From the sequence record OR525701.1: a stretch of DNA of 64,000 nucleotides. One strand, given 5' to 3'. The stretch is from Escherichia phage vB-Eco-KMB38. Positions 3,545 through 63,064 of the stretch are shown one piece after another. The notes under the pieces were generated by a model. It did not search any database. It had not been told where the DNA came from and saw only the letters and a program-made list of their open reading frames with translations. Every line of letters begins with the position of its first letter. The stretch's first letter is position 1. Both the position numbers and the translations under genes were made by a program.

Positions 3545-3574
3545 TTTGTTTACTCCTCTGTAGTTGATAAGTCT

Positions 3575-3604
3575 ATAGTATCACATACCAAATACGTTGT
3601 AAAC
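3575..3604 (-). promoter_or_regulatory. early sigma70-type promoter (GTTTAC -35, TACTAT -10) for the 89-aa ORF
   Basis: rc reads GTTTACAacg...N17/18...TACTAT then AGACTTATCAAC leader, matching the recurrent early-promoter pattern in this window. Confidence 0.55.
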
Positions 3605-3610
3605 AATCTT

Positions 3611-3618
3611 TATAAATA
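3611..3618 (+). promoter_or_regulatory. late promoter TATAAATA for gene 24
   Basis: Exact TATAAATA 28 nt upstream of the gene 24 ATG. Confidence 0.65.
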
Positions 3619-3645
3619 ATCTATATCACATAAGGAAAAAATGCA

Positions 3646-19322: not shown

Positions 19323-19616
19323 TTATTTACGGAATGAAAGGAATGCTGGTGCTCGGAATGGAGTATCATCTTTAGAGTATTTAACTAATACGACCATTGG
19401 TACCTCTGTTTCTAAATGTCCTGTCAATACACCGATAAAAATTTGATCAGTGTGCTCAGGGTCACGAAAGTTTTTAAGAGGTTCCATAGCAATATGGAAT
19501 GCACCTGGGAATACTCGATTCAATTCGTCAATCACAGCTTCGTTAAAAACATCATCCGCTGGGATAACATCTTCAACTACTAGTTCTTGACCATTAAAGC
19601 GAAGCATAGATTTCAT
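19323..19616 (-). CDS. hypothetical protein 97 aa downstream of alt
   Basis: ATG 19616 preceded by GAGGAAAA RBS; the ORF-track start at 19655 is a GTG read as M. Confidence 0.6.
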   Translation of the reverse strand: MKSMLRFNGQELVVEDVIPADDVFNEAVIDELNRVFPGAFHIAMEPLKNFRDPEHTDQIFIGVLTGHLETEVPMVVLVKYSKDDTPFRAPAFLSFRK

Positions 19617-19645
19617 AACGTTTTCCTCATGTTGTTGATAGGATG

Positions 19646-19675
19646 ATAGTATCACACATCCATGTGTTTGTAAAC
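19646..19675 (-). promoter_or_regulatory. early promoter (GTTTAC ... TACTAT) overlapping the alt stop
   Basis: rc GTTTACAaac...N18...TACTAT then CATCCTATCAACAAC leader. Confidence 0.55.
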
Positions 19676-21762
19676 TATCCTTGGAAAAATTTAAACGGAA
19701 CTGATTCTAAATCCATTAAAGATGCTAACAATTCCAAACCTTTAGGTGCACTAGTTTTTTCTACAAATGAGGAGAACGATACCAGCTCATCAGATTCGAT
19801 TTCACCCGTCATAGCGACCACCTCGCCTGTTTCCATGAGAACATCACCATCGTAAATGACAGCTTCATCTAACTGGTCTGAAGACATGACTTCAGCTTGA
19901 ATAAATTTAAGGTTGGATTCTAAACCTGCACCAGTGTCAGATGACGCATCTGTAATTTTATTTATCTGCAAGAGAATGCCTCTAGGCAAAATAATTTCTT
20001 GCTCATTAGGGTGATTACTCAACTGTCCTGGATAAATCACGTTAACTTTATGGGCGCCATCAATAGCCCATCCAACGTTAACACGGATTTGTTCTGGCGC
20101 ATGCATAGCTGTTCTTACTTGACTAGGAGAAATAGTAACACCTTCGTCATTATTGTCAATGTTAAGCTCTTTGCGAACTTCTTCAGGAGCAAGTCCAAGG
20201 GCAACGTTCTCTTTAAACCCACCGAAAATAATAGGAGCTAGTGAAGTGGAAACATAGTTTCTGAAGTAGAATACCTTATTTTTAACCATTGCTTCGTAAA
20301 TAGGCATTCTGATAGACTGAGCTCTATATAACGTTAGACCTTCAGGTAAACGATCTCCATTTAAAAACGCCGAATCAAGACCATCAATAGCGCGTTTAAC
20401 TTCATCTTCATCTGCAACATCGTAAAAATCTGGTTTATAACGACCTAACAACATATTATTGATATCTGTATATGCAGAAGAGGCATATTCACGAATAGCT
20501 CGTTTTTCAGCAACAGAGTATTGTTTAGGGTCACGATTCATTGTTATATTAAAGGTGCCTCTAGCTGATTCTCGTGCATAAGTATACATCACATTAGACA
20601 AGAACGCTGATTTACGTTGTTTCCAAGTTCTTTCAGATACTTCAGCTAAAACGTCGTCAGGCAGTTGGAAATTATCACGTCTAAAATCTTCAAACCATTC
20701 GTCTTTAATAGAGTCTGCAATTTCATTTGCAGCTTCAACAAAAGCAGCTAATGCTTTAACAGATGTTGTTTTTTCGGTTTTAATTTTCTTAGCAAACTTT
20801 TCTAAAGTCGGCTTAATAACACTACCATAAGAAACTTCATCGGCAAATTTAAAGGATTCATCAATACGATTATAAATCTTATTTTCGATATCAGCAACTA
20901 AAGTGCCTTTTGCTGTGGACGATGCTTGGGCTAGTACGATTTCATATGCTTCAGGAAGTAATTCGGCTGTAGCCGGGCCACTAACTTCTTTAGCAGAATT
21001 TTCGTATTTCTGGAATAACTCACCTTCTTGACGGTCAGCTTCTAAAGATTGACTTGCTGCAATAGCACGACGAGAAATTTTAGTGCGAGCAATAACAGGC
21101 TTATCTTTACGTTTTTCTTCTACCGCGGCAATAGAACCAGCGATAGCCGTTTCTTTGGTGACCTTTTCACCGGTCTTTTTACTCACATAAACTTCGCCAA
21201 CATCAGAATCTACTTTCGTGTACAACTCTGTGTTAATGTTAGGGATGCCTTTAATATCTTCAATGTTGGCATTTTTACGAACCATCATCACATAGGTGTG
21301 TTTACCTGTGAATTGATACATTGCCGACAATACTTTAAAACGACCACCGGTTTTAGTAGAAACTAAACGAGCAAGAAGAGTTTGAAGCTGCTGTCCACGT
21401 CCTTTCAATTTCTTGGTAGGGAATCTGAACAGAACCGCATCCATACGAAGAGCTTTAACCTGTTCATATACTGTATTGAAAATGGTGTTGATTGCATCAA
21501 TAGGAGCAGGACCAAGGCCGTTTTTCAATTCAGCGAGATTACCCTTTTCAGACAGACTCATAATAACAACATGGGCATATTTGTCGCCAAGTTTAACTTG
21601 TTTTACAGCATCGCCTTCAGAAAGGTAAGAGAATAAGCGAACTACGATGTTTGTATCGATATCACCAATTTTCCAGACTTGTGGAACTTTAGCTTTAGGG
21701 TTCAAATTGACGACAGGAAGACTGCCTTCAGATTCAAACACTTCATTTAATTGTTCAGACAT
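19675..21762 (-). CDS. alt: Alt ADP-ribosyltransferase (packaged, modifies host RNA polymerase)
   Basis: 695 aa (T4 Alt 682 aa); position between gene 54 and ligase; N-terminus MSEQLNEVFESEGSLP. Confidence 0.88.
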   Translation of the reverse strand: MSEQLNEVFESEGSLPVVNLNPKAKVPQVWKIGDIDTNIVVRLFSYLSEGDAVKQVKLGDKYAHVVIMSLSEKGNLAELKNGLGPAPIDAINTIFNTVYEQVKALRMDAVLFRFPTKKLKGRGQQLQTLLARLVSTKTGGRFKVLSAMYQFTGKHTYVMMVRKNANIEDIKGIPNINTELYTKVDSDVGEVYVSKKTGEKVTKETAIAGSIAAVEEKRKDKPVIARTKISRRAIAASQSLEADRQEGELFQKYENSAKEVSGPATAELLPEAYEIVLAQASSTAKGTLVADIENKIYNRIDESFKFADEVSYGSVIKPTLEKFAKKIKTEKTTSVKALAAFVEAANEIADSIKDEWFEDFRRDNFQLPDDVLAEVSERTWKQRKSAFLSNVMYTYARESARGTFNITMNRDPKQYSVAEKRAIREYASSAYTDINNMLLGRYKPDFYDVADEDEVKRAIDGLDSAFLNGDRLPEGLTLYRAQSIRMPIYEAMVKNKVFYFRNYVSTSLAPIIFGGFKENVALGLAPEEVRKELNIDNNDEGVTISPSQVRTAMHAPEQIRVNVGWAIDGAHKVNVIYPGQLSNHPNEQEIILPRGILLQINKITDASSDTGAGLESNLKFIQAEVMSSDQLDEAVIYDGDVLMETGEVVAMTGEIESDELVSFSSFVEKTSAPKGLELLASLMDLESVPFKFFQG

Positions 21763-25446: not shown

Positions 25447-25766
25447 TAGAACCTCATCTGAAAGCCGTGCGATTTAACATTACCGCCATAAATGTCAGAG
25501 GTATTGACTTCACGTGCGGCGCTAGGGTCGATGTTAATATCATGGCTGAGCTTAGTGATTGCTAAGGTATCACGACCGTTAACAGTACGGAATTCTACCG
25601 GGCACACGACATCAGCATAAGCCTTAATGGATTCACGAGTAGGTTGTTTGTCGACAGGAACGTCTTTACCCGCTTTAGAGAAAACAACTTCACAGAAATT
25701 TTTACGAGTATCAAAATAAGTGGTCATAAACATAATATTTTCCTCAAAGGAGGCCGAAGCCTCCAT
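25446..25766 (-). CDS. hypothetical protein 106 aa (alternative start at 25733 after GAGGAAAA gives 95 aa)
   Basis: ORF in track; GGAGGC-CGAA-GCCTCC hairpin 25749-25764 lies at its 5' end. Confidence 0.5.
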   Translation of the reverse strand: MEASASFEENIMFMTTYFDTRKNFCEVVFSKAGKDVPVDKQPTRESIKAYADVVCPVEFRTVNGRDTLAITKLSHDINIDPSAAREVNTSDIYGGNVKSHGFQMRF

Positions 25767-25774
25767 TTTTAAGA

Positions 25775-26140
25775 TTAGATATCAAATTCGTTAAGAACTA
25801 CATCAAAGATTGCTTCGAGATGTTCAGGTTTAGCTCGGTTACTCAGGATATGACGAATCCAAGTTTTAACCAGAAGTTTACGATTAACACCATTCCAGCA
25901 AGGATGAGTACCTAAATCACGCTGACGGAAATCATCATCTAATGCAATTTTAAAATTTGAACCTTCCATCGTGATTGAAACCGTGATACCATTTTCAAAT
26001 CGCATATAAACGTAATTAGGAGTCATGCACTGTTCGATTTCACAAACTGTACCGTTTTCGTGTTTCCATAAGCAAATAACTTCAGAAGAACCAGCAATAC
26101 CGTTAGAAACATATTTGCGTTCGAAGTTGATGTAGTTCAT
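25775..26140 (-). CDS. hypothetical protein 121 aa, paralog of the adjacent 122-aa ORF
   Basis: Shared CMTP motif and similar length with ORF 26215-26583; own promoter cassette. Confidence 0.6.
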   Translation of the reverse strand: MNYINFERKYVSNGIAGSSEVICLWKHENGTVCEIEQCMTPNYVYMRFENGITVSITMEGSNFKIALDDDFRQRDLGTHPCWNGVNRKLLVKTWIRHILSNRAKPEHLEAIFDVVLNEFDI

Positions 26141-26168
26141 TTTATTCTCCAGATGTTTAAGTTGTTTA

Positions 26169-26210
26169 TTGGTACAGGTCTATAATAACATAACCTGTAC
26201 CAAAGTAAAC
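26169..26210 (-). promoter_or_regulatory. early promoter with stem-loop (PeSL-like cassette)
   Basis: -35 GTTTAC (rc of 26205-26210), -10 TATTAT; 10-bp perfect inverted repeat TTGGTACAGG / CCTGTACCAA brackets the -10. Confidence 0.55.
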
Positions 26211-26214
26211 TGTT

Positions 26215-26583
26215 TTATGCAACTTTAATCCAATTGTCTAAATTTAAAACACCTTTGGCTTTCATTTTTTCGATCAGGTTATCTGCTGTAATGCGTCCAT
26301 TTTGATACCATGTAACATCTTCAGAGTAACCAGTTTCTTCGTCAACATATGTTTCTGAACGAATTTTACCGGTAATAATAGTTTTTAATTCGTATGTGTC
26401 ACCTGTGAAAAAGTTTGCTAACACAATTTTCCAAGAGAAATCATCAGAAGGACCTTCAGGGGTCATACAACTTACGATCTCAAATTGCTCTTTGTATAAC
26501 ATCCACTGGAATTCTTTAATTTCGATAGCTTTATAACCGTCGTGGTCTTTACATTTGATGTATGAGTTCAGATTGATTTTCAT
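26215..26583 (-). CDS. hypothetical protein 122 aa, paralog of ORF 25775-26140
   Basis: ATG start with GGAG RBS; own early promoter upstream. Confidence 0.6.
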   Translation of the reverse strand: MKINLNSYIKCKDHDGYKAIEIKEFQWMLYKEQFEIVSCMTPEGPSDDFSWKIVLANFFTGDTYELKTIITGKIRSETYVDEETGYSEDVTWYQNGRITADNLIEKMKAKGVLNLDNWIKVA

Positions 26584-26654: not shown

Positions 26655-26690
26655 ATCTTTTTAAACTTTTTCTGCCCTAAACGCACAAAA

Positions 26691-26708
26691 GGGAGACCGA
26701 AGTCTCCC
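26691..26708 (-). terminator. intrinsic terminator
   Basis: GGGAGAC-CGAA-GTCTCCC; rc followed by UUUU. Confidence 0.75.
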
Positions 26709-30015: not shown

Positions 30016-30252
30016 TTATAGTGTTCCATATACTCGAGTTGCTTCAACAAGACCATCACTGCCTAATTTAAGATTAGTAATTTGGTCACCATCTTTAGGA
30101 TTAACGATTATGAGAAAAGAACGTGGAGATTCTTGAATAACTCGTAATGTTGCATCCTGGAAACGTTCAGACACTTTATTGATGAGTGCTTGAGCAAATT
30201 CTTTTACTTTAATCTGAAATTCGTGTACTGTAATTGGGGTTTCACTTAGCAT
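30016..30252 (-). CDS. hypothetical protein 78 aa
   Basis: ATG with GAGGAAA RBS and early promoter upstream. Confidence 0.55.
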   Translation of the reverse strand: MLSETPITVHEFQIKVKEFAQALINKVSERFQDATLRVIQESPRSFLIIVNPKDGDQITNLKLGSDGLVEATRVYGTL

Positions 30253-30281
30253 TTCGATTTCCTCATTGTGTTGGTAGAGTT

Positions 30282-30311
30282 ATAGTATCACAACTCCACC
30301 ATGTTGTAAAC
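30282..30311 (-). promoter_or_regulatory. early promoter GTTTAC ... TACTAT
   Basis: rc GTTTACaacatggtggagttgtgaTACTAT then CTCTACCAACAC leader. Confidence 0.55.
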
Positions 30312-30587
30312 TTAAATTGCAAAACATTTAATTTCTTGTGAATCGAAATCAACTTCGCACTGAATTACTAGTTCAGCATCAAGTCCAAACACAACAATCA
30401 CGTGAGCCGAGCTGGGCAACAGTGTAACAGACACAGAATCCACTTGGTCAGGCACCAGCGTATTCAAAACGTAGAGTAGTTCAGAGTGGATCTTAAGCTC
30501 GGTAGCCGTGTCCAGCTTATCAAAGAAATGATTTGCGATAATCTGACTAAAAACGACCTTTACAATTTCAGAATATTTAGGGAACAT
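30312..30587 (-). CDS. hypothetical protein 91 aa
   Basis: ATG with GAGG RBS. Confidence 0.55.
   Translation of the reverse strand: MFPKYSEIVKVVFSQIIANHFFDKLDTATELKIHSELLYVLNTLVPDQVDSVSVTLLPSSAHVIVVFGLDAELVIQCEVDFDSQEIKCFAI

Positions 30588-30990: not shown

Positions 30991-30991
<1 letters not shown>
30800..30991 (-). CDS. possible small ORF 63 aa (GTG start only, overlaps neighbour by 20 nt)
   Basis: No ATG in frame; weak. Confidence 0.25.
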
Positions 30992-32077
<1,086 letters not shown>

Positions 32078-32078
<1 letters not shown>

Positions 32079-32377
32079 TATTTTATTCCTAAGAAAGTTT
32101 CAAGAATACGAATGTTATGCTCGCGGCGGTCTTTATTAATTTCAGCAACGTTTTTATTAATTGACGTACTTCTAACGTTTGAAGAAATAAATTTAATCAT
32201 ATGACTTTTGAGTTGTTGCAAATCCAACCCCTTTTCTTTAGCAGCTTTACGAAGAGCTTTACCTGCTTCATCTAGGGCCTTTGCTGCATCTTTATCATAG
32301 TTGCCAAGTGACATTCCACGGCAGATATCAATATACTCATCAGACCGTTTGATGTAATTCTCTAGTAATGTTTTCAT
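32078..32377 (-). CDS. hypothetical protein 99 aa
   Basis: ATG with GAGGAAA RBS and PeSL-like promoter upstream. Confidence 0.55.
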
Positions 32378-32399
32378 TTAGATTTCCTCAATTATCCAT

Positions 32400-32435
32400 A
32401 GGAGCATTATACTCTGCTCCTGAGAGTTTGTAAAC
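32400..32435 (-). promoter_or_regulatory. early promoter with stem-loop (PeSL-like), family A
   Basis: 7-bp inverted repeat AGGAGCA/TGCTCCT around loop TTATACTC carrying the -10; -35 GTTTAC; near-identical to the cassette at 61421-61456. Confidence 0.55.
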
Positions 32436-32659
32436 TATTTTACTAAAGATTCAATATACTCATGAAGAGCTTTAGTCGCTACTGCCCACTTATTCTGATA
32501 TTCATTTTTCAGATTAGCACGAGACTGAACTAACAAGCGGTCATTAGTCGGAGACAAAGATTCTAATCGTTGAATCTGGCGCCCATAAATCATAGCTGCC
32601 ATTTCAGATTCATAGATAAGCCCTTTAATGTATTCATGTTGTTCTTTAGTCATTGGCAT
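32435..32659 (-). CDS. hypothetical protein 74 aa (pseT.1-like position)
   Basis: ATG with AAAGAGGAAAAA RBS. Confidence 0.5.
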   Translation of the reverse strand: MPMTKEQHEYIKGLIYESEMAAMIYGRQIQRLESLSPTNDRLLVQSRANLKNEYQNKWAVATKALHEYIESLVK

Positions 32660-33293: not shown

Positions 33294-33781
33294 GTTTTAA
33301 TAATCTCAATGATTTCATCTCGGGATAATCCATTGATAAGAACGATTTTCAAACCATCACACTGGATTTTGTACGATTCAAACAATACACACAACTCTTC
33401 TGCTGTATGATATGGACTTGAAATTCCGAGGCGGTTGAATTTGTCGGTAAGAGGGTCGCAAATAATGTAGAATTTTATACCTGCGATATGTACGTTTGGT
33501 TGACTAATATTAATGAACACATTAGCGTCGTATTTAGTCAAATTGTTTTGAAGAAATTCTACCATGGCATTAACTGCTTCCGGCATTGCTTCACGTTTCT
33601 CTTCAGCGTATCGGGTGGAATACTCTTTTTGTTTTACTTTCTTTTTAAGATTTTTGGCCAGTGTAACACGTAGGTCAGTAAGATAACCAACTGGACGTCC
33701 TTTCTTAAAGACCCGGATTCCGTCAGTTGTATCTCCAAAAGCGGTTACGACCATATCGTTAGTAATCAATTGCATATTCAT
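33281..33781 (-). CDS. alc: Alc (inhibitor of host transcription)
   Basis: 166 aa from ATG 33781 (MNMQLITNDM...), after GAGGAG RBS; T4 Alc is 167 aa. Confidence 0.8.
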   Translation of the reverse strand: MNMQLITNDMVVTAFGDTTDGIRVFKKGRPVGYLTDLRVTLAKNLKKKVKQKEYSTRYAEEKREAMPEAVNAMVEFLQNNLTKYDANVFINISQPNVHIAGIKFYIICDPLTDKFNRLGISSPYHTAEELCVLFESYKIQCDGLKIVLINGLSRDEIIEIIKTCLK

Positions 33782-33811
33782 AATTTTCTCCTCGTGTTGT
33801 TGATAAAAGCC

Positions 33812-33841
33812 ATAGTAACACCTTCCTTGGTGTTTGTAAAC
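33812..33841 (-). promoter_or_regulatory. early promoter GTTTAC ... TACTAT upstream of alc
   Basis: rc TTTACAaacaccaaggaaggtgtTACTAT then TATCAACAACACGAGGAG leader. Confidence 0.55.
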
Positions 33842-33843
33842 CA

Positions 33844-34977
<1,134 letters not shown>

Positions 34978-41378: not shown

Positions 41379-41621
41379 TCAAACAGACTTTTTCACAATT
41401 TTCCAATCAGCTTTAAACGATTCAACATCAGAGTGGTGAATCCAGAATCCTGCACTTTCACCATCTTCATAGAGTGGACATCCATCGCATTCATCTTCCC
41501 AACCCATATCGCGTAAAAGATGTTCAGCTTTTTCAACAAGTTCAGCGTCTTTACCGACGATGTTGAAGTACCATTTACCTCTAACTTCAGAATCTTTGAT
41601 GCTCTGACGTTGCAATCTCAT
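41379..41621 (-). CDS. hypothetical protein (frd.2-like), 80 aa from ATG 41621
   Basis: Track start 41636 is a GTG; the ATG at 41621 follows GAAGGAG RBS. Confidence 0.5.
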   Translation of the reverse strand: MRLQRQSIKDSEVRGKWYFNIVGKDAELVEKAEHLLRDMGWEDECDGCPLYEDGESAGFWIHHSDVESFKADWKIVKKSV

Positions 41622-41645
41622 TTTATTCTCCTTCACTTTTATTTG

Positions 41646-41683
41646 ATAGGGCTACTATAACATAGCCCTATCTTATTATAAAC
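41646..41683 (-). promoter_or_regulatory. early promoter with stem-loop (PeSL-like), family B
   Basis: 9-bp inverted repeat ATAGGGCTA/TAGCCCTAT around loop CTATAACA; -35-like GTTTAT; homologous to the cassette at 62193-62229. Confidence 0.5.
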
Positions 41684-42069
41684 TACTTTTTAAAAGTTTT
41701 TTGCAAAAGTTCGATGATTTCGTCGACGTTGGTTTCATCTACGATACAATGGATTTTTGTTACACCTAAAGTTATACCTTCGTTAGTAGGTTGAGGCTTT
41801 TCTAAAGTTACCTCAGTAAAGTATTTGAATTCTTCAGAGTAAATCTCAAAATACGTCTCAAGTGGGCCACCAGCCGTGTATTCAGTGCCATCTTCCATAG
41901 TTACACGTACCACACAATCACCAGCACAATCATCACTTTCCATTTCATCTACAACAAAACTAGGTCCGTGCTTCTCTATTAAATTTAGCATCATTACATT
42001 GCAACGGCACTCGTTAGCAAAGTCATTTTTAAATAAAGGGTTAATGATATAAGATTTTCCGATTTCCAT
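41683..42069 (-). CDS. hypothetical protein 128 aa (frd.3-like), Cys-rich N-terminus
   Basis: ATG with GAGGAAATC RBS and early promoter upstream. Confidence 0.55.
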   Translation of the reverse strand: MEIGKSYIINPLFKNDFANECRCNVMMLNLIEKHGPSFVVDEMESDDCAGDCVVRVTMEDGTEYTAGGPLETYFEIYSEEFKYFTEVTLEKPQPTNEGITLGVTKIHCIVDETNVDEIIELLQKTFKK

Positions 42070-42098
42070 TTTGATTTCCTCATGTTGTTGATAGGTCT

Positions 42099-42127
42099 AT
42101 ACTAACACATCTATGGAAGAAGTAAAC
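42099..42127 (-). promoter_or_regulatory. early promoter GTTTAC-N17-TAGTAT
   Basis: rc GTTTACttcttccatagatgtgtTAGTAT then AGACCTATCAACAAC leader. Confidence 0.55.
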
Positions 42128-42158
42128 AACTTTTTCGGTAATTTACAGATACTCAAAA

Positions 42159-42176
42159 GGGAGACCGAAGTCTCCC
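42159..42176 (-). terminator. intrinsic terminator after gene 32
   Basis: GGGAGAC-CGAA-GTCTCCC; rc followed by UUUU. Confidence 0.75.
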
Positions 42177-45482: not shown

Positions 45483-48400
45483 ATGGTTGACATCAAACGT
45501 AAGTTCAGGGCCGAAGATGGTCTTGACGCAGGCGGTGATAAGATAGTTAACGTTGCGCTTGCTGACCGCACAGTTGGCACCGATGGCGTGAACGTTGACT
45601 TTTTGGTGCAAGAAAACACCGTACAGAATTATGACGATACGCGCGCGTATACAAAAGATTTTATTGTTCTTTATGATAATCGTTTTTATCAAGCTTTAAA
45701 CGATATTCCAGCTCCGGCAGGCCCTTTCTCTTTGGCTAAATGGAAGGCAACTCGTACAGATGCAGAATGGATTACAGTTCAAGGCGGAGATTTCCAATTA
45801 TCAGTAGGTAACTCTATTGCGGTTGATACTTCAGCTGGCACTGATATTAATTTCACTTTGCCTCAAAATCCTTTAGATGGCGATACAGTTATTTTGTCTG
45901 ATATTGGTGGTAGAGTAGGCTATGTAAAAGTTCAAATTACTGCAGAGGCTCAAAGTATTGTAAACTTTAGAGGACAACAGGTTCGTTCAGTTTTAATGAC
46001 GCACCCAAAATCTAAAATGGTCTTCATTTTTAGCAACCGCCTATGGCAAATGTATGTTTCTGATTACGAACGTAATGCAGTCACAGTAACTCCTGCTAAG
46101 CCATATCAGGCGCAACCTAATGATTTTATCATTCGACGTTTTACATCAGCCGCTCCTATTAATATTACATTGCCTCGTAATGCTAATAATGGCGATATTA
46201 TTAATTTAGTGGATTTAGACAAATTAAACCCATTATATCACACAATTGTCAAAACTTACGATGAAACAACTTCTATACGAGAAGCTGGTGTTCATGTAGC
46301 AGAAGGACGTAATACTGCGGAAGCATTCTTTGTTTATGATTCTGCCAATAGTTTATGGCGTGTTTGGGAAGGTGACCAGAAATCTCGTTTACGTATAGTT
46401 CGTAATGATACTGATTTACGCCCTAATGAAGAAGTTCTTGTTTTTGGAACTAATAATGATACAATCTCGACGGTAAATCTTACTTTGCCTACAGATATTT
46501 TGTCTGGCGATACTGTTAAAATATCGTTGAATTATATGCGTAAAGGGCAAACTGTAAAAATTAAAGCTGCTGAAGGCGATACAATTGCTAGCAGTATTTC
46601 TTTATTACAGTTCCCAAAACGTTCGGAGTATCCACCTGATGCACAATGGGTTTCTGTTAGTGAGTTGGAATTTAATGGTGATACTTCGTATGTACCTGTA
46701 CTTGAGTTAGCTTATATAGAAGATTATTCATCTGAAACAAAATATTGGGTAGTTCAACAAAACACCGTAACCGTCGAACGAGTCGATGCATCGAGCAATA
46801 CCACTCGAGCTCGTTTAGGTGTTATTGCTCTTGCTTCTCAAGCGCAAGCAAATGTCGATTTAGAAAATGCTCCTGGTAAAGAACTGGCTATTACTCCGGA
46901 AACATTAGCAAATCGTACAGCAACTGAAACTCGTCGTGGTATTGCTCGTATTGCAACAACTGCACAAGTTAACCAGAATACCGATTTTGCATTCCAAGAC
47001 GACTTGATTATTTCTCCTAAGAAATTGAACGAACGTACAGCAACTGAAACCCGTAGAGGTGTTGCTGAAGTTGCAACTCAGGCTGAAACTAATGCCGGAA
47101 CAGATGATACCACTATTATTACTCCTAAGAAATTGGATGCCCGTCAAGGTTCTGAAGTTTTATCTGGTATTGTAAAATACACATCTACGACTGGTACTAC
47201 AGCTGCTACTATTCGTGGTAATGCTGGGACTAACGTTTATAACAAAGCCGTAGATAATTTAACTATTTCTCCAAAGGCTCTTGACCAGTATAAAGCTACC
47301 CCTACTCAGCAGGGTGCAGTAATTCTTGCTATTGAAAGTGAAGTTATCGCTGGCGAATCACAAGCCGGTTGGGCTAATGCTGTAGTGACCCCTGAAACTC
47401 TGCATAAGAAAACTTCTACTGATGGACGTATTGGTTTAATTGAAATTGCTACGCAAGCAGAAACTAACACTGGAACTGATTATACTAGAGCAGTAACGCC
47501 TAAGACGTTAAATGATAGGAAAGCTACGGAAGGATTATCTGGCATAGCCGAAATTGCTACGCAAGTTGAATTTGATACTGGAACTGACGATACTCGTATC
47601 TCGACTCCACTGAAAATTAAAACTCATTTTGATTCTTCTGACCGTACCAGTGTTAATTCTGATTCCGGACTTATTGAAGAAGGAACCTTGTGGAACCATT
47701 ATACTCTTGATATTTCTAAAGCAAATGAAACACAACGTGGTACACTTCGCGTAGCGACCCAGGCAGAATCTAATGCAGGAACTTTAGATGATGTTCTTAT
47801 TACTCCTAAAAAGCTTTTAGGGACTAAGTCCACTGAAACGTCTGAAGGCGTAATTAAGGTTGCTACTCAGGCTGAAACTGTAACAGGAACTTCTGCTAAT
47901 ACTGCTGTATCACCTAAGAATTTAAAATGGATTGTTCAATCAGAACCATCATGGACTGCTACTACGGCGATTCGTGGATTCGTTAAAACTTCATCCGGTT
48001 CTATTACATTCGTTGGTAATGATACGGTTGGTTCAACACAATCTTTAGAATCATATGAGAAAAATAGCTATGCGGTATCACCATATGAATTAAACCGTGT
48101 ACTTGCTAACTACTTACCGTTGAAAGCTAAAGCAGCTGATAGTAATTTGTTAGATGGTCTAGATTCTCTTCAGTTCATCCGTAGAGACATCGACCAGACG
48201 GTTAATGGTTCTTTAAGTCTTACTAAACAGACCAACCTGAGTGCTCCTTTAGTATCTACAAGCACTGCTTCTTTTGGTTCCGAAGCATCTGTTACTCGTA
48301 GATTAACTCTTAACGATTCTAGCGGTTCCGAAATAGTTTTCACTAAAGGAACCCAATCTCTTAGTAATAAAGAGAATTTCGTTGTTAGAGCATGGGGTAA

Positions 48401-51173: not shown

Positions 51174-54100
51174 ATGGCTACTTTAAAACAAATACAATTT
51201 AAAAGAAGCAAAACTGCAGGAGCACGTCCTGCCGCTTCAGTATTAGCCGAAGGTGAATTGGCTATAAACTTAAAAGACCGTGTACTTTTTACTAAAGATG
51301 ACCAAGGAAATATTATTGATCTGGGTTTTGCTAAAGGTGGTAGTATTGACGGGAATGTTATTCATACAGGCAATTATAACCAAACTGGCGATTATACTTT
51401 AAATGGCGAATGTTATTCATACAGGCAATTATAACCAAACTGGCGATTATACTTTAAATGGCACCTTCACTCAAATTGGCGATTTCAATCTCAAGGGTAT
51501 TGCTCGCGTAACTCGTGATATTATTGCTGCGGGTCAGATAATGACCCATGGTGGCGAACTTATTACAAAAAGTTCAGGTACAGCACATGTTCGTTTTCAT
51601 GATTTAGCTGACCGTGAACGTGGAATCATTTTTTCTCCTGCTAATGATGGATTAACTACACAAGTTCTTAATATTAGAGTTCAAGATTACAAAGCTGGTT
51701 CAGAAAGCACTTTCGCTTTTAATGGAAATGGTTTGTTTTCTTCACCAGAAGTTTTTGGGTGGAAATCTGTATCAACTCCGGTAATTTATACCAATAAAGT
51801 TATCACCAATAAAAAAGTTAAAGATGATTATGACATCTATTCGATGGCAGACAATGTCCCATTGTCTGAAAGCACTACTGCTATTAATCATCTACGTGTC
51901 ATGCGCAATGCAGTCGGTTCTGGTATTTTCCATGAAGTTAAAGATAATGATGGAATAACTTGGTATAGTGGAGATGGATTAGATGCTTATCTTTGGTCAT
52001 TTACCTGGAGCGGCGGAATTAAATCAAGTCACTCAATTTCTATCGGTTTAACACCCGGTAATAAAGATTATTCAATATTAGGACCATCTAGCATTGCTTT
52101 AGGAGATAATGACACCGGGTTTAAATGGCATCAGGATGGATATTTTTTTACGGTAAACAACGGTACAAAAACTTTCCTTTCTGGTCCGGCGGAAACCACT
52201 AGCCTTAGAAAAATGGTTATGGGTTATTCTGTAAATGGTACTGATTTGACTACTCCTCCAACTGAAAACTATGCTCTTGCTACTGTTGTGACATATCACG
52301 ATAATAACGCGTTTGGAGATGGTCAGACTCTTTTGGGATATTATCAAGGCGGTAACTATCATCATTATTTCCGCGGCAAGGGTACCACAAACATTAATAC
52401 TCATGGCGGTTTGTTAGTTACTCCAGGTAATATTGATGTTGTTGGCGGTTCGGTTAATATCGATGGTAGAAATAATGCTTCTACGCTGATGTTTAGAGGT
52501 AACACGACCGGAGCTAGTTCAGTTGATAATATGACAATTTCCGTGTGGGGTAACACGTTTACTAATCCTAGTGTAGGTAATCGTAAAAACGTCATGGAAA
52601 TTTCTGATGCAACTAGTTGGATGAGCTATATTCAAAGACTTACTACTGGTGAAGTAGAAATGAACGTTAACGGTTCATTTGAATCATCTGGTGTTACTGC
52701 TGGAAATAGAGGAGTTCACACAACAGGCGAAATTTCATCTGGAGCAGTGAATGCTCTTCGTATTTGGAATGCAGATTATGGAGTCATTTTTAGACGTTCG
52801 GAAGGTAGTCTTCATATTATTCCAACTGCTTATGGCGAAGGCAAAGATGGCGATATCGGTCCACTTCGTCCGTTTAGTATGTCTTTAGATACAGGTAAGG
52901 TCGTTATTCCTGACCTAGATTTGAGTCATACAACTTTTGCTGAAAATGGTTTTATTAAATTCGGTGGGCATGGTGCTGGTGCCGGTGGTTATGATATTCA
53001 ATACGGCCAAGCAGCTCCTGTTTTCCAAGAAATTGATGATGACGCGGTAAGTAAATATTATCCTATTGTTAAGCAGAAATTCTTACAAGGAAAAGCTGTT
53101 TGGTCTTTAGGTACTGAAATTAATTCCGGGACTTTTGTTTTACACCATCTTAAAGAAGACGGGACCGGTGGTCATACCTCAAGATTTAATGCTGATGGTA
53201 CAGTTAATTTCCCTGATAATGTCCTGGTTGGCGGTGGTGAAGCTGCTATTGCTCGAAATGGTAATATTTTCTCTGATATTTGGAAAGTATTTACATCTGC
53301 AGGCGACGTAACTAATATTCGCGATGCAATAGCTACTCGTGTTTCTAAAGAAGGCGACAAGATGACTGGCACTCTTTGGATTAATAAAGATGCTGCTGGA
53401 ATAGTTCTTAATCCTCCTTTGGCCAGTGATTCATCATTTATTCGTTCTGATACGGCCGGGGCCAATAATTGGTATATTGGTAAAGGCGGTGCCGACAATG
53501 GTCTAGGTTTTTACAGTTATGTTACACAAGGCGGTGTATACATAACAACTAACGGTGAAATATCGCTTTCTCCTCAAGGCCAAGGAACATTTAATTTTAA
53601 TAGAGACCGCCTCCATATAAACGGTACACAATGGACCGCACACCAGGGTGGTGGTTGGGGAAATCAATGGAATCAAGAAGCACCGGTATTTGTAGATTTT
53701 GGTAATGTTGGTAATGATAGTTATTATCCTATTATTAAAGGAAAATCCGGTATTACTAATGAAGGATACATATCTGGTGTAGATTTTGGTATGCGACGCA
53801 TTACTAATACATGGGCACAAGGTATTATTCGTGTAGGTAATCAGGAAAACGGTTACGACCCACAAGCTGTATATGAATTCCATCATAACGGTACTTTTTA
53901 TGCTCCAAGCTTACTTAAGAGCAGTAGAGTATCAGCTGGTGGTGGTGACCCTGCATGGGGCGGGCCGTGTATTGTACTTGGAGATAACGATACCGGTTTG
54001 CTTTGGGAAGCAGACGGTATTTTCAACGCATATGCAAACGGCCAAGGTGTGTTTAGTTTTAGACCTGGTTTAGCTCAGACATTCGGTGATGTTAACTTCC

Positions 54101-58762: not shown

Positions 58763-58799
58763 TTTATTTCTCCAAATTAGTATTTGTTTTGATAGGTCT

Positions 58800-58828
58800 A
58801 TAATATCATGTTTGAAGCAAAAGTAAAC
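58800..58828 (-). promoter_or_regulatory. early promoter GTTTAC-N17-TATTAT upstream of motA
   Basis: rc GTTTACttttgcttcaaacatgaTATTAT then AGACCTATCAAAAC leader; part of a duplicated cassette. Confidence 0.55.
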
Positions 58829-58865
58829 TTTATTTTGGGCTCTTTTTCAAAAGCCCTGGTAAAAT

Positions 58866-59081: not shown

Positions 59082-59120
59082 TTTATTTCTCCAATTTGGT
59101 TGTTTTGTTTTGATAGGTCT

Positions 59121-59149
59121 ATAATATCATGTTTGAAGCACATGTAAAC
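59121..59149 (-). promoter_or_regulatory. early promoter GTTTAC-N17-TATTAT (duplicate of the motA promoter)
   Basis: Near-identical to 58800-58828. Confidence 0.55.
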
Positions 59150-59174
59150 TGTTTTGTGAGAAAAATGCACAAAA

Positions 59175-60935: not shown

Positions 60936-61382
60936 TTAGTAACTCTGCAGAATGAATTTGAAATTATCTGCCAGAAGACGGTTCATTTCAGTGAGTGTTT
61001 GATATTCTGATGTATGATTGCGAGTGAATGCCAGAGCCAATTGTCCTTTACCATAACCAGTAGTCAGTGGTTTCATGTTCTTAGCTGCAACAAAGATTAC
61101 GTCATATTCAATATTGTTAGTGCCCATGGTACGGGCTAGTTGCGAACGGCCTTGACGAATGTGAGAAAGAATTGCATCCAACCCTTGTTTAGAACGTTGA
61201 CGTCCTACAAAAAATCGTGCTGCTACTTGTCGCCAATCAGATGAACCTTTAACAAAGAAGTAAAAACCTTCACGAGAACGAAACTCTTTAGAAACTTCGG
61301 AACCGTATTCGCCATTACGAACTACTGCAACAACTTCACCGCCAACTGCCAGAAGGTCTTTACGAGTTAAATATTTAGACAT
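60936..61382 (-). CDS. ndd: nucleoid disruption protein Ndd
   Basis: 148 aa; ...[29 protein letters not shown]...[40 protein letters not shown] as T4 Ndd. Confidence 0.85.
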
Positions 61383-61420
61383 GCTAATTTCCTCAATTGA
61401 TTAATGTTTTTGTAATCCGT

Positions 61421-61456
61421 GAGAGCATTATACTCTGCTCTCAAGAGTTTGTACAA
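61421..61456 (-). promoter_or_regulatory. early promoter with stem-loop (PeSL-like), family A, upstream of ndd
   Basis: 7-bp inverted repeat GAGAGCA/TGCTCTC around loop TTATACTC (-10 TATAAT on - strand). Confidence 0.55.
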
Positions 61457-61458
61457 TT

Positions 61459-61659
61459 TTATTCGGCCATATCAGAACGTTCAAAAAGCTCTTCAACAGT
61501 TAAACATTCGGTATCATCCTCAATAAAGAATCGGGACCAACACGTTGGGGTGATGCAGTTATGAGTTTGTCCGGCTATAGAAGCTACACGAATAAGCTGC
61601 TGGCCATTATTCAGGACAAATTTTTCACCAATTTCAACATCTTTAAAAAGCTTAGCCAT
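61459..61659 (-). CDS. hypothetical protein 66 aa
   Basis: ATG with GAGGAACA RBS and early promoter upstream. Confidence 0.5.
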   Translation of the reverse strand: MAKLFKDVEIGEKFVLNNGQQLIRVASIAGQTHNCITPTCWSRFFIEDDTECLTVEELFERSDMAE

Positions 61660-61687
61660 TTTGTGTTCCTCGTGTTTTGATAAGACT

Positions 61688-61717
61688 ACTATACCATAAT
61701 CCTACTGTGTTGTAAAC
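61688..61717 (-). promoter_or_regulatory. early promoter GTTTAC ... TATAGT
   Basis: rc GTTTACaacacagtaggattatggTATAGT then AGTCTTATCAAAAC leader. Confidence 0.5.
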
Positions 61718-61909
61718 AATTAAATTACATTAAAATATGTTAAAGCCAACCATGTTCCAGTGAACGAACATGCGATGTAAAAACCAGTATCACAAATTGT
61801 TCTTAGTACAATAAGAAGTGCATTTTTCATAAGTACCTCAATGCAATTGAAAATATTATACAAATCATAGGGATACTAAGCAACCATATTCCGATCCACA
61901 TTTTAGAGC

Positions 61910-62173: not shown

Positions 62174-62192
62174 GATGTTATCCTCTTTTAGA

Positions 62193-62229
62193 TAGGACTA
62201 CTATAACATAGTCCTACTTAGTTGTAAAC
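62193..62229 (-). promoter_or_regulatory. early promoter with stem-loop (PeSL-like), family B
   Basis: 8-bp inverted repeat TAGGACTA/TAGTCCTA around loop CTATAACA; -35 GTTTAC. Confidence 0.5.
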
Positions 62230-62241
62230 ACTTTTATGAAA

Positions 62242-62799
62242 TTAAAGATGAAGATACCACCCGTTGTAGTTGCTCTTGCGGACGATTTTCTTTAGGTCTT
62301 CATGGTCTCCCACGAACTTTATAGAATAAGAGAAGACGTCAGGTGAGGTTTCTTTGACATCTAATATAATAATGCAATCTGCGACTCGATGGTTCAAGAA
62401 GGGCCCTATATTGATTCCATTACCACCCGGATAATCACCACTGTATCCTGTGGTAACCGAAATCCATTTAGAATCTACCTGGTGCGTCTTGACTTCGACA
62501 CGCAACCCGCAGTATTTAGGATGAGCTAACACGTCCCATGCATACGTGTACGGGTCTTCTACGTCTTCAATACCTTTATTAACATATCCATCTAGCCAAT
62601 TTGCTACCACATACTCTGCAAAGACTGCAACCTTACAACGACGAACTACATCTTCTTTGTTTTGGTCAGGATTTTGGCTCAGGGAATACCGAGCAGTGTC
62701 AGCAATCTTCACCTTCATTTCACTAGTCAAAAACTCATTCGACAGGATAAATGTCGGAAGATTCTTCAGTCTCAACAGTCCCAAGTTCGTCTTTACCAT
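62242..62799 (-). CDS. denB: endonuclease IV
   Basis: 185 aa from ATG 62799 (AGAGG RBS), the T4 DenB length; motif VANWLDG...DPYT.AWDVLAHPKYCGLRVEVKT...GINIGPFLNHRVAD; track ORF opens at 62862. Confidence 0.75.
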   Translation of the reverse strand: MVKTNLGLLRLKNLPTFILSNEFLTSEMKVKIADTARYSLSQNPDQNKEDVVRRCKVAVFAEYVVANWLDGYVNKGIEDVEDPYTYAWDVLAHPKYCGLRVEVKTHQVDSKWISVTTGYSGDYPGGNGINIGPFLNHRVADCIIILDVKETSPDVFSYSIKFVGDHEDLKKIVRKSNYNGWYLHL

Positions 62800-63022: not shown

Positions 63023-63043
63023 AATTACCCCTAAAGAAAAAAA

Positions 63044-63059
63044 GGGGACCGAAGTCCCC
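63044..63059 (-). terminator. terminator after rIIB
   Basis: GGGGAC-CGAA-GTCCCC; rc followed by UUUUUUU. Confidence 0.7.
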
Positions 63060-63064
63060 AATTA

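Follow-up and report, generated by a model that had tools for sequence, protein, structure and literature searches.

A short inverted repeat that overlaps a putative promoter at positions 32400-32435 recurs, with altered arms, upstream of the ndd gene at 61421-61456, which raises the question of what kind of element the two copies represent and what their hairpin does. The window in which they lie, that is, the whole 64,000-nucleotide stretch of Escherichia phage vB-Eco-KMB38 analysed here (sequence record OR525701.1), shares 99.8-100% sequence identity with PTK and AlbertHofmann, two Escherichia phages of Mosigvirus phapec2 (Tevenvirinae), and represents DNA of a Mosigvirus phapec2-type T-even phage. 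Promoter-early stem-loop (PeSL) cassettes, to which the elements were assigned in the original prediction, have been proposed as accessory-gene swap sites of T4-type phages, and the role of their stem-loop rested on one reporter assay.

Both elements and the genes at both sites are located on the minus strand. Read in that direction, copy 1 (32437 to 32375) has the structure TAG-TTTACA-AACTCTC-AGGAGCA-GAGTATAA-TGCTCCT-ATGGATAATTGAGGAAATCTAA-ATG and copy 2 (61461 to 61380) the structure TAA-AAT-TGTACA-AACTCTT-GAGAGCA-GAGTATAA-TGCTCTC-ACGGATTACAAAAACATTAATCAATTGAGGAAATTAGC-ATG, the stretch between the -35 hexamer and the stem being AACTCTC in the former and AACTCTT in the latter. Copy 1 starts with the stop codon (32435-32437) of a 74-aa pseT.1-like ORF (32435-32659, phrog_2347), which directly abuts the -35 hexamer TTTACA (32429-32434). 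The hairpin follows at 32400-32421, with the 5′ arm AGGAGCA at 32421-32415, the loop at 32414-32407 and the 3′ arm TGCTCCT at 32406-32400, and the -10 hexamer TATAAT occupies 32411-32406. The leader (32375-32393) consists of AATTGAGGAAAT, with the Shine-Dalgarno (SD) motif GAGG at 32389-32386, then CTAA and the start codon (32377-32375) of a 99-aa ORF (32078-32377), beyond which a 63-aa ORF (31887-32078) and pseT (30991-31890) are found on the same strand. In copy 2, the stop codon (61459-61461) terminates a 66-aa Ndd.1 homologue (61459-61659) and is followed by the -35 hexamer TGTACA (61450-61455) and the hairpin (61421-61442), in which the arms GAGAGCA (61442-61436) and TGCTCTC (61427-61421) enclose the same loop, a flanking T-A pair (61443/61420) extends the stem to 8 bp and the -10 TATAAT is located at 61432-61427. 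The leader AATTGAGGAAAT at 61380-61398, with its SD GAGG at 61394-61391, continues with TAGC and the ATG of ndd (60936-61382, 148 aa; Pfam PF06591, E = 4e-89). The 99-aa ORF downstream of copy 1 has no match above the Pfam threshold, its sole match being PHROG 2364 of unknown function; its homologues include RB32 ORF217c and VR26 gp202 (106 aa), and the label "putative homing endonuclease" given to it in GenBank MZ501047 receives no support from Pfam or PHROGs.

The two elements and their arms are thus confirmed at the predicted coordinates, and the shared loop and leader are likewise real, the 12-mer AATTGAGGAAAT occurring exactly twice in the window, once per copy, with a stem-to-12-mer distance that is 19 nt longer in copy 2. 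Two arm positions distinguish the copies (A-T to G-C and G-C to A-T), and each is changed on both sides, so that complementarity is perfect in both copies, as had been claimed. The -35 motif GTTTAC named in the original prediction is found in copy 1 (32430-32435), but copy 2 reads TTGTAC there, and the element needs to be read on the minus strand, which places the -10 TATAAT within the loop, with its last base common to the 3′ arm. The promoter of copy 1, TTTACA-17-TATAAT, matches TTGACA/TATAAT at 11/12 positions and is the top sigma-70 match within 30.5-35 kb, and that of copy 2, TGTACA-17-TATAAT, matches at 10/12; judged by these hexamers and their spacing, both are near-consensus sigma-70 promoters of the T4 early type. 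The 5′ arm falls within the promoter spacer (-21 to -15) and the 3′ arm covers -6 to +1. The stems are perfect over 7-8 bp with a loop of 8 nt, and the predicted RNA hairpins have energies of -11.4 kcal/mol for copy 1 and -13.9 kcal/mol for copy 2 (z = -4.3), that of copy 1 surviving in both the MFE and the centroid fold of its 116-nt context; overall, the RNA stems of -11 to -14 kcal/mol persist in both kinds of fold in contexts of 116-129 nt. A chance origin is excluded by the count of the pattern TACAAACTCT-N8-GAGTATAAT, which occurs twice in the window against 0.03 expected, a number reached in none of 100 shuffles. Among random 37-nt windows drawn from the same genome, just 2% contain a perfect stem of at least 7 bp, and a search of the whole window against Rfam gave no match at the gathering score.

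The genome holds more copies than the two originally described. Both of these exist, but the near-identical AlbertHofmann genome contains four, the two beyond the window preceding a 197-aa hypothetical gene (arms GAGAGCA/TGCTCTC) and the orthologue of T4 55.2 (arms GAGAGA/TCTCTC, a third compensated position, C-G to A-T), in addition to those before the 99-aa ORF and ndd. A BLAST search located the cassette 1,243 times across 731 phage records, among them JS98 (Dhakavirus), VR26 (Gaprivervirus), CIP9-like Enterobacter phages and Tequatrovirus. Relatives of the cassette thus come from Dhaka-, Gapriver-, Tequatro- and Karamvirus-like phages, and the family spans at least five T-even genera. Besides AGGAGCA, GAGAGCA and GAGAGA in this phage, the arms read GGGACCA, GGGGTCA or GAGGACA elsewhere. 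In Tequatrovirus a single copy is present upstream of motB, where the T4 sequence is TAATAGTTTACAAACTCTTGGGACCAGAGTATAATGGTCCCGTGGAGTATAAAA; based on direct sequence homology, with the same promoter, loop, stem position and post-stem 11-mer, the T4 member of the family is the motB early promoter. It differs from the window copies in carrying GGAG instead of GGAU and the arms GGGACCA/TGGTCCC, and in preceding motB rather than the 99-aa ORF or ndd. Primer-extension stops have been reported at the motB promoter in infected cells (PMC1702504), and the hairpin of the promoter is not discussed in the RegB/motB paper (Durand 2006, PMC1702504).

The assignment to the PeSL class holds, all of its defining sequence features (Arbiol 2010, PMC2839356; Comeau 2014, PMC4122927) being present. 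Each copy is confined to an intergenic region that begins with a stop codon in A/T-rich sequence and ends with an SD motif and a start codon (TAG 32435-32437 to the ATG at 32377 in copy 1, TAA 61459-61461 to the ATG at 61382 in copy 2), and has a strong early promoter that is sigma-70-like by its sequence match (11/12 and 10/12), together with a stable stem-loop of 7-8 bp whose pairing covaries in 24 sequences. The overlap of the stem-loop with the -10 is that of one of the two commonest PeSL subclasses, common in RB49/phi1. PeSLs are further dispersed through their genomes in multiple copies, next to small accessory ORFs and at sites of indels or replacements; here, the four copies lie near small accessory ORFs, and an association with indels or replacements is seen at the pseT and copy-3 loci but not at ndd (152 records). 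There are also differences. The present family is found in Mosigvirus and other T-even genera and its core (TACAAACTCTT-stem-GAGTATAAT-stem-GGAK) is far more conserved, whereas the published stems of the T-even pair PST/T4 are placed just upstream of the promoter; moreover, the covariation, the strand bias of G·U pairs and the adjoining RegB-type site considered below are not described in Arbiol 2010 or Comeau 2014. The elements are therefore best regarded as PeSL-type cassettes, probably an additional and unusually conserved member family of the published class, an assignment that these features support well.

The predicted exchange of ORFs at the cassettes in related phages is observed at the pseT locus but not at ndd. 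The gene order is pseT.2-pseT.1-pseT in T4 and the same with ORF217c added in RB32, both lacking the cassette, and pseT.1-cassette-99 aa-63 aa-pseT in this phage, while JS98 and VR26 have another small ORF, the cassette, a further ORF of two unrelated kinds and the 99-aa homologue; in one Dhakavirus-like contig the cassette immediately precedes the 99-aa homologue. Homology to the window across this locus is reduced to an island of 57-88 nt at the cassette and returns exactly at the ATG of the 99-aa ORF. Upstream of the cassette is either pseT.1 or a small ORF that looks membrane-like, and its immediate downstream neighbour is one of three different ORFs, depending on the phage; the cassette marks a junction at which different genera carry different inserted ORFs. 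One contig likewise has a different gene upstream of the copy-3 cassette, with the break at the -35. No polymorphism was found at the ndd locus, the denB-ndd region being colinear in 152 Mosigvirus records. Since the unit is conserved and its flanks are not, the cassette would double as a homology patch for the insertion or swap of ORFs.

The pairing of the arms, rather than their sequence, is what has been maintained. In a scan of IMG/VR the nine 5′-arm positions were set to N and the 3′ arm was left outside the pattern, which gave 37 loci and 24 distinct 44-mers. Among these 24 sequences, 99.4% of cells are paired compared to 84.5% with shuffled partners (0/500 shuffles reached the observed value) and 40-50% when partners are slid, and five of the seven stem pairs show double-sided changes. 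The shuffle control inflates significance, as the copies share descent, a weakness from which the slid-partner and unrelated-sequence controls are free; likewise, the search patterns partly fixed the arms, loop and flanks, and constancy outside the arms therefore says nothing. A metagenome scan returned mostly unrelated TTGACAAACTC...GAGTATAAT promoters, which were used as the negative control, and added two new arm types. Over the resulting 14 arm types there are 89 Watson-Crick pairs, 8 G·U, no A·C and one other, and the 75 unrelated matches to the same fixed pattern, with 137, 64, 72 and 252, respectively, pair at random. In the orthologous copies at pseT, the closing pair is G-C, G·U or A-U depending on the phage, the classical stepwise path of a compensatory change. 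The arms thus stay paired across related phages when all copies are compared, and selection on the pairing is firmly established.

This result bears directly on two alternatives. The inverted repeat could be an operator at which a dimeric DNA-binding protein turns early promoters off. The mechanism of their shut-off is incompletely understood, and the palindromic symmetry centred on the -10 would agree with such a role. The arm sequence, though, varies freely, even within one genome, and only complementarity is kept, which is the signature of nucleic-acid pairing and not of protein recognition; such an operator is barely credible and was rejected. Secondly, the complementary arms might lack any function and be a mutational by-product of palindrome-templated repair or template switching, or of gene conversion between the copies. 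Correction of quasi-palindromes can create paired changes without selection, and arms are indeed common to copies within one genome, copies 2 and 3 being identical. Against this, stable G·U intermediates persist across numerous genomes and three separate loci, in accordance with the stepwise G-C/G·U/A-U path, the strand bias with no A·C would not be expected from a DNA-templated mechanism, and hairpins over the -10 recur in promoter families of unrelated sequence, perfect stems of at least 7 bp being present over the -10 in five of the nine strong intergenic promoters of the window compared to the 2% background. A by-product origin is accordingly very improbable.

The same pair counts address the level at which the structure acts. 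A G·U pair on the sense strand corresponds to A·C on the other, and the presence of the former together with the absence of the latter supports a structure of the sense strand, and hence of RNA, over a cruciform. Of the selection on secondary structure or cruciform suggested earlier, the first part therefore stands (99.4% of cells, five of seven pairs), but the cruciform is disfavoured (8 G·U, no A·C). A role in DNA would involve a cruciform or ssDNA hairpin that tunes promoter melting or the response to supercoiling, or that stimulates recombination or template switching, as in the PeSL mini-circles. In favour of it, either strand carries the perfect repeat and is predicted to fold into a DNA hairpin of -6 to -7 kcal/mol, the junctions of the RB49 PeSL mini-circles were mapped within the loop in the PeSL literature, and the cassettes are located at gene-content junctions. 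A cruciform, however, needs pairing on both strands, and the 8 G·T on the sense strand, with none of the reverse kind in 14 arm types, count against it. Arms of 7 bp with a loop of 8 nt also extrude poorly, and T4-type DNA enters the cell as a linear, modified duplex, which makes a DNA-level role improbable.

If the structure acts as RNA, the next question is in which transcripts it is present. With the standard spacing from the -10, transcription would start just past the 3′ arm, in copy 1 at an A at about 32399, and the cassette's own transcript would thus lack the hairpin; the complete hairpin would be contained solely in RNA that arrives from promoters further upstream. No T4 start-site or 3′-end maps turned up in the literature searched. 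A comparable arrangement is known from the T4 genes e, soc, 49 and I-TevI (PMC3014915), where the promoter is likewise inside a stem-loop, transcripts from the internal promoter lack the 5′ arm and the whole structure exists in read-through RNA only. In those genes, however, the promoter is late and the 3′ arm sequesters the SD and AUG and blocks translation of early read-through RNA, whereas in the cassettes the promoter is early, the 3′ arm ends at +1 and the SD, which follows it after 10 nt in copy 1 and after 29 nt in copy 2, is free.

One possible function of a hairpin in read-through RNA is termination. According to the proposal of the PeSL authors, the stem-loop terminates or attenuates upstream transcripts, insulating the downstream unit and preventing promoter occlusion, and the adjacency of a RegB site would then be incidental. 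The location just past the upstream stop codon and the RNA-level structure supported by covariation fit this. In the only experiment on a PeSL stem-loop, that of RB49/phi1 PeSL211/210, placing it before lacZ lowered expression to an extent similar to that seen with the rrnB T1 terminator, which was interpreted as termination, but termination and RNA processing are not separable in such an assay. T4-type intrinsic terminators and UUCG intercistronic hairpins are also intergenic RNA hairpins right after a stop codon; the cassettes differ from them in having no U-run, an 8-nt loop that contains the -10 box and an embedded promoter. No T-run follows the stem at either window copy, a U-tract is absent after every copy (tails AUGGAUAAU, ACGGAUUAC and GUGGAGUAUAAAA), and the terminator scan called neither window copy, though it detected UUCG hairpins with T-runs; a strict intrinsic (Rho-independent) terminator can thus be rejected. 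The stems are also just 7-8 bp long with an 8-nt loop, and the genes downstream of copy 1 include pseT, which in T4 is delayed-early and depends on read-through. Termination or attenuation as the main function is therefore rather unlikely, even if it is the principal rival explanation.

A further conserved feature was overlooked in the original prediction. In every member of the family, an 11-mer of the RegB type begins 2-3 nt past the 3′ arm, and in each of the 36 unique contexts it agrees at 8-11 of 11 positions with the consensus of strong RegB/S1 cleavage sites, GGA(G/U)RAYARAA (PMC1702504, PMC3014915). In copy 1 it is GGATAATTGAG at 32387-32397 (minus strand, 9/11; +3 to +13 of the predicted transcript), in copy 2 GGATTACAAAA at 61408-61418 (minus strand, 10/11), and the two other genomic copies score 10 and 11, while only 1.7e-4 of window positions score at least 10. 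The consensus with at most one mismatch is not enriched in the window as a whole (22 matches compared to 21.6 expected), so the signal is positional, following the stem, and not global. This phage type encodes RegB (Pfam REGB_T4, E = 3e-69), and the T4 motB sequence GGAGUAUAAAA is a model RegB/S1 substrate that is cut both in vivo and in vitro (PMC1702504). The window copies carry GGAU, a worse substrate than GGAG (kon 0.025 vs 0.08), and 28 of 30 intergenic GGAU sequences of T4 are resistant to RegB; the 11-mers of the window are accordingly best described as RegB/S1 target sites predicted by consensus. The copy before the 55.2 gene is orthologous to the T4 55.2 leader, which has GGAUAAUAAAA immediately past a UUCG terminator hairpin; just two GGAU sites are cut in T4, and this is one of them. 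In that leader (NC_000866, about 40.79 kb, minus strand) the sequence AAGGGCTTCGGCCTTTTT-GGATAATAAAA comprises the UUCG terminator hairpin and then the RegB-cleaved GGAU, and the orthologous Mosigvirus position has the promoter hairpin of the present family followed by the same 11-mer.

The explanation that we favour, and hold to be fairly likely as a whole, is that of a portable PeSL-type early-gene cassette whose hairpin has a role linked to RegB; its identity as an early-promoter cassette is firm. The unit of about 60-80 bp comprises the upstream stop codon, the promoter, a 7-bp stem over the -10, the RegB/S1-type site, the SD and the ATG. Host RNA polymerase would start right after the 3′ arm and produce an mRNA without the hairpin that opens with the RegB site, and RegB, PNK and RNase E/G would later inactivate this early message. 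RegB products have 3′-phosphate ends open to RNase II/R and 5′-OH ends that are converted by PNK for RNase E/G. The full hairpin would form just in RNA reading through from upstream promoters, where it most likely acts as an intercistronic barrier, protecting the upstream message against 3′ exonucleases at its 3′ end once RegB has cut 4-5 nt downstream, and it may also partly attenuate read-through. We infer this barrier or insulator next to the RegB cut to be the favoured role of the hairpin.

A more specific version, which we regard as tentative, is that promoter, hairpin and RegB site belong together as a single conserved module for RNA fate, with different consequences for two classes of transcripts. 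Messages that originate at the cassette would carry a free RegB site at +3, pass from a 5′-triphosphate to a 5′-OH and a 5′-P end and be destroyed on schedule, while the hairpin of read-through RNA, 2-3 nt ahead of the RegB site, would guard the new 3′ end of the upstream cistron from RNase II/R. Alternatively, a weak outer CUCU:GGAG helix might mask the RegB site in read-through RNA. RNAfold predicts this helix, neither side of which varies; copies with CTCAC lack it, and it was therefore treated as weak.

Several other repeated promoters and hairpins are present in the window. A second promoter-hairpin family (62187-62246, 61675-61734 and 41641-41700, minus strand) has the structure TTTACA-17-TATAGT with a stem TAGGACTA/TAGTCCTA over the -10; its copy at 41682 reads TAGGGCTA/TAGCCCTA, a compensatory A-T to G-C change, and that at 61716 is degenerate and G·T-rich. 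Spaced about 260-510 bp apart, the members of this family and copy 2 border the ORFs of 66 aa (ndd.1) and 87 aa. A third family (26165-26219, 58783-58837, 59104-59158 and 42082-42136, minus strand) is TTTAC-N16-TATTAT-AGACCTATCAAAAC, and has a long stem around the -10 (TTGGTACAGGT...ACCTGTACCAA, 11-12 bp) only at 26209. An SD matching the RegB consensus exactly, GGAGAATAAAA, follows this copy at 26140-26150, and the same 11-mer follows the second-family promoter 41682 at 41621-41631. The fourth family (19612-19695, 30248-30331, 33777-33844 and 3562-3621, minus strand), GTTTAC-N18-TACTAT, has the leader ...CAACAACATGAGGAAA in all copies and in some of them a short spacer palindrome, such as ACACAT-GG-ATGTGT at about 19660. 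Hairpins of the GGGAGAC-TTCG-GTCTCCC type, with a UUCG tetraloop on the minus strand and followed by T-runs, are found at 25743-25765, 26686-26708, 42154-42176 and 63038-63060; they are classical T4-type intrinsic terminators, and two copies 15 kb apart are 100% identical. Unrelated to the cassettes are in-frame direct repeats in large plus-strand genes, probably of the tail-fibre region, at 46887-47920 and 51353-51480, one set consisting of 42-69-nt units at a spacing of 108-375 nt and the other being a perfect 55-nt duplication.

For the Mosigvirus phapec2-type phages, the findings provide the annotation of four putative early transcription units with leader processing sites. More generally, the cassette family offers a comparative test of the PeSL stem-loop, in which the pairing proves to be selected and the structure appears to be strand-specific and hence RNA, and the hairpin is always accompanied by a RegB-type site, one that in T4 motB has been experimentally validated. 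Two topics that have been studied separately, the shuffling of genes at PeSLs and the RegB-driven decay of early mRNA, are thereby joined. If the proposed coupling of promoter, hairpin and RegB site is true, PeSL hairpins would insulate mRNAs against decay instead of terminating transcription, and the unit that is selected and moved between T-even genomes would be the module determining RNA fate.
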